From a phage, in the NCBI GenBank assembly GCA_016390365.1, contig GCA_016390365.1_3043.1: a DNA stretch of 64,000 bases. One strand, 5' to 3'. A model generated the notes under the pieces. It did not search any database and was not told the origin of the DNA. It worked only from the letters and a program-made list of their open reading frames with translations. Shown here piece by piece: positions 1,749-47,438 of the stretch; position 1 is the stretch's first letter, and each line of letters begins with the position of its first letter. Both the position numbers and the translations under genes were made by a program.

Positions 1749-2222
1749 ATGAAAACATATCAAGAATTTATCACTGAAGCAGCTATTAATTCTCAAATTA
1801 TTGCTGAATCTTTTACTGATCTTTTGAAATTTAAAAAAGGTCAAAAAATCACTGCTGTATTAGATGATGGTACAGAAGTTGAGATGGATGTACAGGGATA
1901 TAATTATGCAGTAGATGGAAAACTGTATAATAAATCTCATGCTAAATTTGATTCATTTGACGATTTTGTTAATACAGTTGAAGATGAAAAAACTCGTAGA
2001 TCCATTGCAACTGGCGACGCTAAGGTTCTTATGGCACACGGTCATGAACGTATCCGCGCCAAACAGAATAAAATGGGCGAAGATAATTTTGCATTAGTTG
2101 GTTATCAATCTGGTAAACAAACTTATGGTTATCAGCGTACTGCTACCATGTATAATAAAAATGGTAAAATCGCTTTCGTGAATAGCAAAGGCTCTATTCA
2201 GTACGTCAAATCATTCAAATAA
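1749..2222 (+). CDS. internal head protein, IPII/IPIII-like, with capsid targeting sequence
   Basis: N-terminus MKTYQEFITEA matches the T4 internal-protein CTS (MKTYQEFIAE, cleaved after E by prohead protease); body differs from T4 IPs. Confidence 0.7.
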   Translation: MKTYQEFITEAAINSQIIAESFTDLLKFKKGQKITAVLDDGTEVEMDVQGYNYAVDGKLYNKSHAKFDSFDDFVNTVEDEKTRRSIATGDAKVLMAHGHERIRAKQNKMGEDNFALVGYQSGKQTYGYQRTATMYNKNGKIAFVNSKGSIQYVKSFK

Positions 2223-42967: not shown

Positions 42968-44395
42968 GTGGTAGAAATTATTCTTTCTCATCTTATATTT
43001 GATCAAGCTTATTTTTCAAAAGTTTGGCCATATATGGATTCAGAATATTTTGAAAGTGGTCCAGCTAAAAATACATTCAAATTAATTAAATCTCATGTTA
43101 ATGAGTACCATAGCGTTCCATCTATTAATGCGTTAAATGTTGCATTAGAAAATAGTTCATTTACTGAAACAGAATATTCTGGTGTAAAAACACTTATTTC
43201 GAAACTAGCCGATTCTCCAGAAGACCATAGCTGGTTAGTAAAAGAAACAGAAAAATATGTTCAGCAAAGGGCGATGTTTAATGCTACGTCTAAAATAATT
43301 GAAATTCAAACTAATGCTGAGCTTCCTCCGGAAAAACGAAATAAGAAAATGCCAGATGTAGGTGCTATTCCTGACATCATGCGCCAAGCATTATCAATTT
43401 CATTTGATAGTTACGTTGGTCATGATTGGATGGATGACTACGAAGCACGTTGGCTATCTTATATGAATAAAGCTCGTAAGGTTCCATTTAGACTCAAAAT
43501 TCTAAATAAAATTACTAAAGGTGGAGCTGAAACTGGAACACTGAACGTTTTAATGGCTGGTGTTAACGTCGGTAAGTCATTAGGTCTGTGTTCATTGGCA
43601 GCAGATTATTTGCAGCTCGGACATAATGTTCTTTACATTTCCATGGAAATGGCAGAAGAAGTCTGTGCTAAGCGTATTGATGCTAATATGCTTGATGTTT
43701 CTCTTGATGACATTGATGACGGGCATATTTCTTACGCTGAGTATAAAGGAAAAATGGAAAAATGGCGCGAGAAATCTACTCTCGGTCGTTTAATAGTTAA
43801 ACAGTATCCTACTGGTGGAGCAGATGCTAATACATTTCGATCGCTTTTAAACGAATTAAAGCTCAAGAAGAATTTTGTTCCAACAATCATTATTGTCGAC
43901 TATCTGGGTATTTGTAAATCTTGCCGCATTAGAGTTTACTCAGAAAATAGTTACACAACTGTTAAAGCCATTGCAGAGGAATTACGTGCTCTTGCTGTTG
44001 AAACCGAAACTGTTCTTTGGACTGCAGCACAGGTTGGTAAACAAGCTTGGGATTCTTCTGATGTTAACATGAGCGATATTGCAGAATCTGCCGGTCTTCC
44101 AGCAACAGCTGATTTTATGCTTGCGGTCATTGAAACCGAGGAGTTAGCAGCTGCTGAACAACAACTTATTAAGCAAATCAAATCACGATATGGTGATAAG
44201 AATAAATGGAATAAGTTTTTGATGGGTGTTCAAAAAGGAAATCAGAAATGGGTAGAAATTGAACAAGATTCTACTCCAACTGAAGTGATTGAGGTAGCAG
44301 GTTCACAACAGATACAAGCTGAACAGAATCGCTATCAAAGAAATGAATCGACTCGAGCTCAGTTAGATGCTTTGGCAAATGAATTAAAATTTTAG
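42968..44395 (+). CDS. 41: replicative DNA helicase gp41 (DnaB-like)
   Basis: 475 aa, GTG start; Walker A GVNVGKS. Confidence 0.95.
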   Translation: MVEIILSHLIFDQAYFSKVWPYMDSEYFESGPAKNTFKLIKSHVNEYHSVPSINALNVALENSSFTETEYSGVKTLISKLADSPEDHSWLVKETEKYVQQRAMFNATSKIIEIQTNAELPPEKRNKKMPDVGAIPDIMRQALSISFDSYVGHDWMDDYEARWLSYMNKARKVPFRLKILNKITKGGAETGTLNVLMAGVNVGKSLGLCSLAADYLQLGHNVLYISMEMAEEVCAKRIDANMLDVSLDDIDDGHISYAEYKGKMEKWREKSTLGRLIVKQYPTGGADANTFRSLLNELKLKKNFVPTIIIVDYLGICKSCRIRVYSENSYTTVKAIAEELRALAVETETVLWTAAQVGKQAWDSSDVNMSDIAESAGLPATADFMLAVIETEELAAAEQQLIKQIKSRYGDKNKWNKFLMGVQKGNQKWVEIEQDSTPTEVIEVAGSQQIQAEQNRYQRNESTRAQLDALANELKF

Positions 44396-45250: not shown

Positions 45251-45883
45251 ATGATTTATTATATGCACAAAAATCCACCGTTTAAATACGGTAAATTTCC
45301 TGATGCACAATGTTATAATATAACGCCTGATGAAAATAACCGTGGATATCTTATTGGCACAATTTTTGTAATTGTTAAAGATAACGAAATCGTTGCCTGG
45401 GCAGATTTTAAAGGTACAACATATGATGTTAATCCGGTGCCTTTCACATATTACAATTTAATGGATTTGGCATACGATTATAATTGGTTTAATCATGATA
45501 CTTTGGCTCATATTGAAGGTGTAGGATTTGATATTTCATATTCGGAATACACTTTAAGCCCTATGAGTCGAGCCCATAAAGAACCTGAATATTTTTCATT
45601 TAGGAAACGTGTAAACTTTAAACGCAGCACAGAGTATGTCGGTGGAATTTTTGTTAAAGATAATCGAATTATTCGTATTAATTATCCTTTGAGCGTTAGT
45701 CAAAAAGATATTGATGTTGATTTAGATTTCACTGAAAATAATATTAATAATATTGCTTCTGTGTATTTTGGTATCGATCACAAAATTGTAATATGTGGAT
45801 ATGAATTACCGTTTGAAGAACAGCCTAAAGTAAAAGTTTCTATTGACGATCAAATTTTTAATGCTTTTATGAATAAAGGTTAA
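45251..45883 (+). CDS. 61.2-like protein with internal repeats
   Basis: 210 aa; repeated VKDN-containing motifs; C-terminus IDDQIFNAFMNKG. Confidence 0.6.
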   Translation: MIYYMHKNPPFKYGKFPDAQCYNITPDENNRGYLIGTIFVIVKDNEIVAWADFKGTTYDVNPVPFTYYNLMDLAYDYNWFNHDTLAHIEGVGFDISYSEYTLSPMSRAHKEPEYFSFRKRVNFKRSTEYVGGIFVKDNRIIRINYPLSVSQKDIDVDLDFTENNINNIASVYFGIDHKIVICGYELPFEEQPKVKVSIDDQIFNAFMNKG

Positions 45884-45887
45884 TATG
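45839..45887 (+). repeat. direct repeat copy 1 (gene 3' end)
   Basis: 49 nt, about 4 mismatches to 46197..46245. Confidence 0.7.
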
Positions 45888-46241
45888 TATAGTTCTGAAT
45901 TTTCATATTTAAAAATGGAAAAAATTTCATACGATTTTATAGATGAAAAGGTTTATTACAGTTTCCATGAACCGCGTTTTAATAGTGAGGTTGGGTTTAT
46001 TGTAGTAAAAGACAATTTCATTTTAAAGATATATTCGGCATTAAAGGATTTTCACTACGAAAATATTAACCTAAAATTTGATAAAGAAAACGTTCGTAAT
46101 TGTGCAGTAACAATTACAGGAAATAAAGGTGCATGTGTTATGCTATCTGATGAAATTAATGATTTGCTAAATGATGCAGAAAATATTACTGCGCCATCTA
46201 TTGATGACCAAATTTTTAATGCTTTTATGAATAGAGGTTAA
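45885..46241 (+). CDS. hypothetical protein sharing C-terminal module with 61.2-like gene
   Basis: 118 aa ending IDDQIFNAFMNRG. Confidence 0.5.
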   Translation: MYSSEFSYLKMEKISYDFIDEKVYYSFHEPRFNSEVGFIVVKDNFILKIYSALKDFHYENINLKFDKENVRNCAVTITGNKGACVMLSDEINDLLNDAENITAPSIDDQIFNAFMNRG

Positions 46242-46245
46242 TATG
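46197..46245 (+). repeat. direct repeat copy 2 (gene 3' end)
   Basis: matches 45839..45887. Confidence 0.7.
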
Positions 46246-46407
46246 AAAACATATAAAGAATTTATCAAAGAAGATATGGTTGCTGGAGATTCAGGTGGTA
46301 ATCCTGAAAATATCTCTACTGGAACAGCGTCAGGCGCTGTAGTAAATAAAGGCCCTGAACAGATTTCTAAAAAGAAAAAAGAGGAATCTAAAGAAAAAGA
46401 AGAGTAA
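46243..46407 (+). CDS. hypothetical small protein with capsid-targeting-like N-terminus
   Basis: 54 aa MKTYKEFIKEDMVAGDSGG...; N-terminus resembles internal-protein CTS; Lys/Glu-rich tail; not in track. Confidence 0.4.
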   Translation: MKTYKEFIKEDMVAGDSGGNPENISTGTASGAVVNKGPEQISKKKKEESKEKEE

Positions 46408-46409
46408 AA

Positions 46410-47438
46410 ATGTCATCAATACCTTGGATTGATAATGAGTTTGCGTATCGTGCATTAGCTCATTTACCTAAATTCACACAAGTAAATAATAGTTCAACTT
46501 TTAAATTACGGTTTAGATGCCCAGTGTGTGGAGATTCAAAAACCGACCAGAATAAAGCCCGTGGATGGTATTATGGTGATAATAATGAAGGAAATATTCA
46601 TTGTTATAACTGTAACTATCATGCACCAATCGGAATATATTTAAAGGAGTTTGAACCCGATTTATATCGTGAGTATATCTTTGAAATAAGAAAAGAAAAA
46701 GGTAAAAGTCGTCCAGTAGAAAAACCTAAAGAACTTCCTAAACAACCTGAGAAGAAAATAATTAAATCTCTTCCGTCATGTGTTAGATTAGATAAACTGG
46801 CGGAAGACCATCCAATTATAAAATATGTAAAAGCTCGTTGTATTCCAAAGGATAAATGGAAATATCTTTGGTTTACAACTGAATGGCCTAAATTAGTTAA
46901 TAGTATAGCTCCAGGAACATATAAAAAGGAAACACCTGAGCCTCGTCTTGTTATTCCAATTTATAATGCTAACGGAAAAGCTGAGTCTTTTCAAGGACGT
47001 GCATTAAAGAAAGATGCTCCTCAAAAATATATCACCATCAAAGCTTATCCTGAGGCAACAAAAATCTATGGAGTCGAACGAGTCAAAGATGGTGATGTAT
47101 ATGTTCTAGAAGGACCTATAGATTCGCTTTTTATTGAAAATGGTATAGCTATTACAGGTGGTCAATTAGACCTAGAAGTTGTTCCATTTAAAGATAGACG
47201 TGTGTGGGTTTTAGATAATGAACCTCGTCATCCTGACACTATTAAGCGAATGACTAAATTAGTTGATGCAGGAGAAAGGGTTATGTTTTGGGATAAATCT
47301 CCCTGGAAATCAAAAGATGTTAATGATATGATTAGAAAGGAAGGTGCAACCACTGAACAAATTATGGAATATATGAAAAATAATATTGCTCAGGGGTTGA
47401 TGGCTAAAATGCGGTTATCTAAATATGCTAAGATTTAA
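46410..47438 (+). CDS. 61: DNA primase gp61
   Basis: 342 aa; zinc ribbon CPVCGDSK...CYNC; Toprim region. Confidence 0.95.
   Translation: MSSIPWIDNEFAYRALAHLPKFTQVNNSSTFKLRFRCPVCGDSKTDQNKARGWYYGDNNEGNIHCYNCNYHAPIGIYLKEFEPDLYREYIFEIRKEKGKSRPVEKPKELPKQPEKKIIKSLPSCVRLDKLAEDHPIIKYVKARCIPKDKWKYLWFTTEWPKLVNSIAPGTYKKETPEPRLVIPIYNANGKAESFQGRALKKDAPQKYITIKAYPEATKIYGVERVKDGDVYVLEGPIDSLFIENGIAITGGQLDLEVVPFKDRRVWVLDNEPRHPDTIKRMTKLVDAGERVMFWDKSPWKSKDVNDMIRKEGATTEQIMEYMKNNIAQGLMAKMRLSKYAKI

Follow-up and report, generated by a model that had tools for sequence, protein, structure and literature searches.

Head assembly in phage T4 is textbook material, and foreign proteins are loaded into T4 nanoparticles by means of the capsid targeting sequence (CTS) of its internal proteins. 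The prohead protease gp21 processes the major capsid protein gp23 after Glu65 (L-T-E|A-E-I-G-G-D), and gp24 is cut after the leader MAKINELLRE. In IPIII, an Asp at position 10 of the CTS prevents processing yet leaves targeting intact. Small gp21-processing products include the acid-soluble internal peptides II and VII, which derive from the core proteins gp67 and gp22 and some of which remain in the head. Mutational work has shown that CTS residues 4 and 7 govern targeting, and residues 8 and 10 processing (summarised in PMC9026906). In the unexpanded prohead, the gp23 N-terminal region is disordered, lies inside the shell and probably contacts the scaffolding core (PMC9546572). In the expanded shell, the N-fist of mature gp23 (gp23*), an unusual 25-residue segment, touches four neighbouring subunits (PMC9958956), and the head-length mutations A66D, A94V and G97S map to the gp23 N-terminal region (PMC9958956, PMC9546572). 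Head proteins of the giant phage SPN3US carry propeptides of >100 residues that are removed by a T4-type prohead protease (PMC5694885).

Within the window, the whole 64,000-nucleotide stretch of phage DNA analysed here, we studied gene 61.1 (46243..46407, plus strand; ATG at 46243, TAA at 46405-46407), which comprises 54 codons plus the stop and encodes the 54-residue product MKTYKEFIKEDMVAGDSGGNPENISTGTASGAVVNKGPEQISKKKKEESKEKEE. A Shine-Dalgarno element read from the sequence, GAGG (46234..46237, plus strand), stands 5 nt before the ATG, and the stop codon of an AdfA-like upstream ORF (46239-46241) falls between the two, ending 1 nt before the ATG. The conserved downstream neighbour, gene 61 for DNA primase (46410..47438, plus strand), has its ATG 2 nt past the 61.1 stop, so that 61.1 is tightly packed in its operon by the upstream stop and the primase start. 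The first-pass annotation had called the ORF unannotated, but it was absent only from the gene track consulted there; public records already name it ('gp61.1 hypothetical protein' in T2, LC348380; T4p034/P39228 in T4), and it is annotated as a hypothetical protein in T2, T4, RB32 and others. T2-like phages match the 61.1 region at 98% identity (megablast), and T4 gp61.1 is 94% identical to the window product, with 3 differences in 54 residues. The product matches the short-form family phrog_1823 end to end (residues 1-54, E 7.3e-32) and the long-form family phrog_2086 over residues 8-53 (E 8.3e-16), and a Pfam scan returned no match at E<0.1. The gene is listed among the conserved T4-like ORFs without assigned function (Nolan et al. 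2006). What our analysis adds to the known gene, and what we did not find in the searchable literature, is that its leader is of CTS type, that the sequence behind it is homologous to the cleavage junction and N-fist of gp23, that relatives have late-promoter boxes and that cyanophages encode proteins which copy their own gp23.

The first ten residues of gp61.1, MKTYKEFIKE (46243..46272, plus strand), share the form MKTY-x-EFI-x-E with the leaders of IPI, IPII, IPIII, T2 IpIV and Alt and, like them, end in the gp21 motif (aliphatic-x-Glu). All four known CTS determinants are kept, with Y4 and F7 at the targeting positions and I8 and E10 at the processing positions, so that the capsid-targeting resemblance remarked on in the first-pass annotation extends to every residue experimentally shown to matter. 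The comparator in the window is the internal head protein ipIV (1749..2222, plus strand; 100% identical to T2 IpIV), whose leader, MKTYQEFITE, is identical to that of gp61.1 at 8 of 10 positions. Across all six frames of the 64 kb, the pattern MK[TS][YF]x[ED][FVILM][ILMV]x[ED] occurs at only two ORF starts, those of 61.1 and ipIV, and the leader match is therefore not a chance one. The two genes are indeed remote from each other, as had been noted: 61.1 lies about 44 kb from ipIV, inside the 41-61 replication cluster, whereas internal proteins are encoded in the hypervariable ip locus. ipIV comes after e (lysozyme) and denV, with neighbours at 769-1263 and 1323-1739. It has a TATAAATA late-promoter box at 1707, 42 nt upstream of its ATG; unlike ipIV, 61.1 is without a late promoter in the window phage. 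gp61.1 differs further from the internal proteins in that it has no folded cargo, only 44 residues following the presumed cut, and in that it is deeply conserved rather than hypervariable, with a post-leader sequence homologous to gp23.

Short-form leaders differ between lineages (MKSFKEVMNE, MKTYKEFVKLNE and MTLLEKYKQSLSE; MKTFLECSG...QVDE in Aeromonas phages), and MKxFxEF[VIL]-type starts recur in very distant short forms. We also scanned IMG/VR DNA with the degenerate pattern MK[TS][FY]x[ED][FLV][ILVM]xE, which gave at least 120 matches (loci L091-L210). Among the matches listed, nearly all marked the genuine start of an ORF, and the encoded proteins were highly varied: NMNAT-like enzymes (HHVMSFGRMNPPTTGHLKL) were among them, as was a family with the motif YD(K/P)EV(M/Q)G(S/R)SQIR(R/K). 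Judged by these motif matches, leaders of CTS type seem to have a much wider distribution than the ip loci of T-even phages.

Beyond the leader, the similarity is to the major capsid protein. Residues 2-46 of gp61.1 align without gaps to T4 gp23 residues 57-101 (BLASTP, E 6e-8), and hhalign, comparing a profile of the family module (52 sequences) with one of the gp23 N-terminus (12 sequences), paired residues 6-47 with gp23 61-102 (98.2%, E 5.9e-14). When the family profile was searched against all 177,635 distinct PDB sequences, T4 gp23 came first (E 5.8e-13), mature gp23* chains reached 4.8e-11 and the first unrelated match had E 0.055. The shared motifs are G-D-x-G, N-I-A-x-G-x-T-S-G-A-V and G-P, with a basic pair or run at the same place, and family members such as P0103 (EAEVIGDSGYDAENIASG) and P0114 (SEANIAGDHGGDADDIAAG) link both sequence types, the linking members having GDHG or GDSGYD motifs. 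By these pairwise and profile alignments, gp61.1 and residues 61-101 of gp23 are homologs whose cleavage sites fall at the same place.

The leader also aligns with gp23 residues 57-65, QAFGSFLTE, in which F59, F62, L63 and E65 match the functional positions of the CTS. At the predicted prohead-protease (gp21) site, I-K-E|D (46264..46275, plus strand), Glu10 is aligned with gp23 Glu65 (L-T-E|A). The gp23 N-fist/N-arm-like segment that follows, DMVAGDSGGNPENISTGTASGAVVNKGP (residues 11-38; 46273..46356, plus strand), forms the invariant core, and it is this gp23-like segment, not the leader, that is invariant across the family; within it, residues 11-35 are the counterpart of the N-fist, 25 residues long, in mature gp23. 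The protein ends in a Lys run and Lys/Glu tail, KKKKEESKEKEE (residues 43-54; 46369..46404, plus strand), and the Lys run, which is conserved family-wide, aligns with gp23 M-V-R-R (98-101), including the invariant Arg100-Arg101. The first-pass annotation had described the composition of the Gly/Ser-rich middle and the Lys/Glu tail correctly, but the middle is not a linker, being homologous to the cleavage junction and N-fist of gp23. An A-run (AAAAAGAAAAAAGAGG, window 46369-46404) codes for the Lys tail, and in the T6-type sequences P0002 and P0003 a frameshift at this run leads to a product of 62 aa (…KKKKRNLKKKKSKNVINTLD), the reading frame continuing into the beginning of gene 61.

A hydrophobic-x-Glu motif directly before the core is present in 38 of 41 short and 77 of 79 long family members, with varying flanking residues, and the junction Glu is >90% conserved in the family. 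As this motif is kept in an otherwise variable, disordered junction, a retained protease site is the simplest reading, and we infer that gp21 would cleave gp61.1 after Glu10. gp61.1 thus resembles the gp23 propeptide junction (57-65) and N-fist/N-arm (66-101), ungapped over ~41-45 residues with the Glu in register; unlike gp23, with 54 aa it is without the HK97-fold body (P, A and I domains) and so cannot be a shell subunit. The gp24 propeptide (MAKINELLRE|S) is, like the gp61.1 leader, ten residues long, spaces its hydrophobic residues in the same way and ends in Glu, but gp24 is a full HK97-fold capsid protein and, unlike gp61.1, has no N-fist-like Gly-rich segment. Peptides II and VII come from core proteins, whereas gp61.1 is the product of a dedicated small gene with capsid-protein homology.

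Only stray automated labels have hinted at this likeness to head proteins. The Pfam Gp23 model (PF07068) begins at gp23 residue 88, which explains both the absence of the gp23 relationship from Pfam output and the stray labels 'major capsid protein' and 'putative head morphogenesis protein' on 61.1; the 'major capsid protein' labels on 61.1 homologs are mis-transferred from partial similarity. A library-wide HMM search with a close-relative profile listed no gp23-sized protein at E<=1e-3, so that a broader profile was needed to detect the relationship, and a protein search with the gp23 N-terminus returned fragments only. We considered and rejected two further candidates. Recent gene conversion as the source of the gp23 similarity is contradicted by third codon positions that are essentially randomised, with 7 of 32 identical in the cyanophage S-SM2 and 14 of 45 between T4 gp23 and the window. 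A Gol/Lit mimic was rejected because the gp23 alignment ends at residue 101-102, before the most conserved gp23 block (RRAIPNLIAFDICGVQP...), which a review equates with the Gol region.

The first-pass annotation had named lack of conservation in related phages as grounds for dismissing the ORF. Gene 61.1 is instead real, deeply conserved and under purifying selection: tblastn matches came from at least 1409 records of Escherichia, Klebsiella, Aeromonas, Acinetobacter and Vibrio phages, 51 clusters at 50% identity emerged when 1.84 billion representative proteins were searched exhaustively with an HMM, and dN/dS between short-form genes had a median of 0.15 and a maximum of 0.46 (Nei-Gojobori, 96 pairs). 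No 61.1 homolog was found in the 50-kb stretch examined of Vibrio phage V05. The ORF is short, low in complexity and AT-rich, and has never been assigned a function (Nolan 2006), as a non-functional ORF with a chance resemblance might be, but the breadth of matches and clusters, the low dN/dS, the Shine-Dalgarno element and operon-style packing, the occurrence of the strict leader motif just twice in six frames of 64 kb and the strength of the PDB-wide match to gp23 all speak against that explanation. We regard it as extremely improbable, and as effectively refuted already by the conservation data.

Our preferred reading, which we hold tentatively and give slightly less than an even chance, is that gp61.1 serves in head assembly as a mini-protein that is brought to the prohead and cut there by gp21. 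The protein would consist of a capsid-targeting-type leader, a prohead-protease site and a gp23 N-fist-like segment. From the leader we infer that gp61.1 would be directed to the prohead, where the leader, and possibly the gp23-like segment too, would associate with the scaffolding core during assembly; this step is modelled on the internal-protein leaders and the gp23 N-terminus. Activated gp21 would then cut after Glu10, the equivalent of gp23 Glu65, and free a disordered 44-residue peptide, DMVAGD...KKKKEESKEKEE, with a basic tail. The uncut form would carry EDMVAGDSGGNPENISTGT(T/A)SGAVVNK, and the cut form DMVAGDSGG...VVNK, with Asp11 as its N-terminus. The peptide might stay with the DNA and be injected, dock where N-fists bind the shell, or leave the head; injection of a gp61.1-derived peptide, which the first-pass annotation had raised, seems to us quite unlikely.

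Several lines of evidence favour the head-assembly reading: the homology to the gp23 junction and N-fist with the cleavage sites aligned, together with the CTS determinants; the position of the gp23 N-terminus inside the unexpanded prohead and the head-length mutations that map there; the conserved hydrophobic-x-Glu junction, together with the recurrence of MKxFxEF[VIL]-type leaders; and the median dN/dS. It is weakened by the shortness of the gp21 recognition motif and by the finding that, in five T-even-type genomes (T4, fHyAci03, P545, phiKp19 and B614), gp61.1 tracks its own gp23 no better than those of the others. In that co-variation comparison, 41 of 120 permutations reached the observed identity sum, and the result is uninformative because the gp23 N-fist is too conserved in those five genomes.

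Expression timing bears on the same question. The late-promoter box TATAAATA is absent from the plus strand between 7592 and 48595 of the window and from the 400 nt upstream of 61.1 in T2 and T4, and the supplement of a T4 RNA-seq study assigns 61.1 to the early class (PMC9697503). These observations count against the head-assembly reading, as does the lack of any mention of 61.1 in the text or supplements of the T4 head mass-spectrometry study. However, PMC9697503 flags ipI, which is known to be packaged, as 'early RNA, late protein', and packaging is therefore compatible with an early RNA class. In relatives, an exact TATAAATA starts 20-50 nt before the 61.1 ATG in 15 of 27 short-form loci, representing 7 distinct leader types, against a background of 0.0016 per equivalent window; among long-form loci, TATAAATA is found in 1 of 39, and NATAAATA in a further 8 of 39. 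The late boxes of these many relatives support a role in head assembly, although they could serve the primase gene rather than 61.1. In the searchable literature we found nothing relevant on gp61.1 function, virion proteomics or ribosome profiling, and neither N-terminal sequencing or semi-tryptic peptide data for gp61.1 nor a report of the protein in proheads or virions turned up there.

The gene neighbourhood points in another direction. In the window, gene 41 for the helicase (42968-44395) is followed by dmd, 61.4 and sp; then come 61.2, which Pfam identifies as AdfA (45251-45883; full-length, E 3e-139), and a 118-aa ORF (45885-46241, plus strand; PF23813, E 1.2e-7). The first-pass annotation had rightly placed 61.1 upstream of the primase gene, but its '61.1-like' upstream neighbour is this 118-aa ORF, a paralog of the C-terminal half of AdfA/61.2. 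AdfA/gp61.2 is an anti-DarT factor; the tandem full-length and 118-aa copies both end in DDQIFNAFMN(K/R)G, and at the tandem position T4 has the full-length gene only and T2 the short one only.

Primase lies downstream on the same strand in 71 of 71 IMG/VR loci, usually <100 nt off and 2-3 nt off in T-evens; T2 and T4 share the arrangement of the window. This linkage points towards replication and away from head assembly. With helicase gene 41 directly upstream in Aeromonas phages (order 41, 61.1, 61) and in KVP40-like phages, and with the early RNA class in T4, it would suit a replication-linked small protein or a coupling ORF for primase gene 61 in which the capsid-like sequence is a relic. 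We consider this very unlikely: a coupling ORF needs neither amino-acid conservation from Vibrio to Escherichia phages nor so low a dN/dS, the gp23 homology with its cleavage sites in register is left unexplained, one or two ORFs come between 61.1 and primase in phages of Pantoea and in Slopekvirus phages, and the S-SM2 homolog described below is not beside the primase gene. In the Aeromonas phages Riv-10 and B614, a terminator-like GC-rich hairpin followed by T's lies between 41 and 61.1 (L006:1440-1500, L018:24040-24088), and a second hairpin lies between 61.1 and primase; hairpins on both sides suggest for this lineage a small transcription unit of 61.1 alone, insulated from its neighbours.

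Proteins of parallel build occur in cyanophages. The protein at locus L091, MKSFKEFIKE|ETPTNSVGTGGYTSTATSGGPVAGFD..., matches the cyanophage-type gp23 N-terminus (S-SSM7) at E 1.6e-11 with the cleavage motifs aligned, and has no match to T4 gp23. In S-SM2, SSM2_108 (L211:5377-5805) combines a CTS-like leader with a copy of the N-terminus of the phage's own gp23 (L211:16851-18254): SSM2_108 (MKTLKQFLKE|TPTNSVGNGGYTSAGGQTVAGYD...) and this gp23 (MIAE|QPTNAVGNGGYTSSGGQTVAGFD) are 69% identical over 32 residues (E 6.5e-14), whereas the match of SSM2_108 to S-SSM7 gp23 is far weaker (E 5.6e-6) and T4 gp23 gives none. The DNA behind the two S-SM2 sequences has an identity of just 56%, and the codons differ for 17 of the 22 shared residues; to judge from these codons, it is selection, not recent gene conversion, that keeps SSM2_108 like its own capsid protein. 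The SSM2_108 gene lies between tail-fibre and terminase genes, away from primase. In S-SKS1, SWZG_00088 (L212:28684-29142, minus strand) likewise joins a CTS-like leader to a copy of the gp23 N-terminus of S-SKS1. A single ORF separates its gene from the primase gene downstream, and its C-terminal part holds a second 61.1-like module, complete with a Lys run; both this position and this module tie the cyanophage proteins to the 61.1 locus. The cyanophage copies add to the support for a head-assembly protein.

The selected likeness of SSM2_108 to its own gp23 would also be expected of a cytoplasmic mimic of the nascent gp23 N-terminus, acting early and never entering heads. Such a mimic might occupy gp21 or gp22 ahead of assembly, a chaperone, EF-Tu or a defence system that senses the capsid, and would thereby time assembly or blunt a sensor. 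The early RNA class in T4, the missing late promoter in the window, the disorder predicted for the peptide in the long-form model and the place of T-even 61.1 beside the counter-defence genes dmd, sp and adfA are all in keeping with this. These neighbours, however, are T-even-specific insertions that the Aeromonas gene order does without, and anti-defence genes are seldom conserved over a whole superfamily, as 61.1 is over that of T4; the gp23 alignment stops upstream of the block equated with the Gol region, many relatives have a late-promoter box, and the conserved CTS-type leader and junction Glu would go unexplained. We judge such a mimic unlikely.

The head-assembly reading may be extended to the whole T4 superfamily, T-evens and cyanophages alike, which would then carry a trans-acting, selection-kept copy of its own capsid cleavage junction and arm as an unrecognised component of head assembly or maturation; we put this forward as a doubtful but possible generalisation. 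The copy could fill N-fist docking sites left empty beside gp24 vertices or the portal, or, by competing with the N-termini of gp23 for places on the scaffolding core, it could adjust the contacts between shell and core and with them head length. A role in head assembly would give 61.1, conserved and without a function since its listing in 2006, a concrete and testable part to play. The alignments suggest that the targeting leader and the gp23 propeptide junction are evolutionarily the same module. If the superfamily-wide reading is true, the targeting sequence of the internal proteins would derive from the propeptide junction of the capsid protein itself, and the best-studied phage head would have an overlooked conserved player. 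Copies of a phage's own capsid N-terminus recur in distant lineages, which points to a general, unexplored way to address or regulate proheads. If the peptide is not packaged, 61.1 would still be a capsid-protein mimic with a target worth finding.

The same C-terminal module occurs in long forms of ~155 aa (PHROG 2086), found in Acinetobacter, KVP40-like Vibrio, Pantoea, Yersinia TG1, EcS1 and CkP1 types, where it follows a conserved helical N-domain of ~105 residues and the junction P-L-F-E|D-MVAGD. Long forms are without a CTS-like leader, which counts against the head-assembly reading; the folded N-domain stands in place of the ten-residue leader. In an AlphaFold model of the long form, the N-domain has a pLDDT of 82-95, and the C-terminal module is disordered (pLDDT <50). 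A domain of ~105 residues before the junction recalls the >100-residue propeptides of SPN3US head proteins, but as an analogy only, since comparison of the two found no sequence or fold relationship. Some members of 240-250 aa (P0070, P0072, P0092, P0110 and P0111) have an extra conserved C-terminal domain after the Lys run; the long-form N-domain matched no known fold, and neither domain had a recognisable fold or function. In BFVD, the long-form N-domain is found inside the larger viral proteins A0A411BBR2 (672 aa) and A0A1B1IT15 (913 aa). At L043:2510-2680, and also at L056-L059, a module beginning VEEVVAGDAGGNPQNIAAG... stands directly after the helicase stop codon; with no in-frame ATG, GTG or TTG before the core of the L043 module, it may be a pseudogene or else a form that has no leader and starts in an unusual way.
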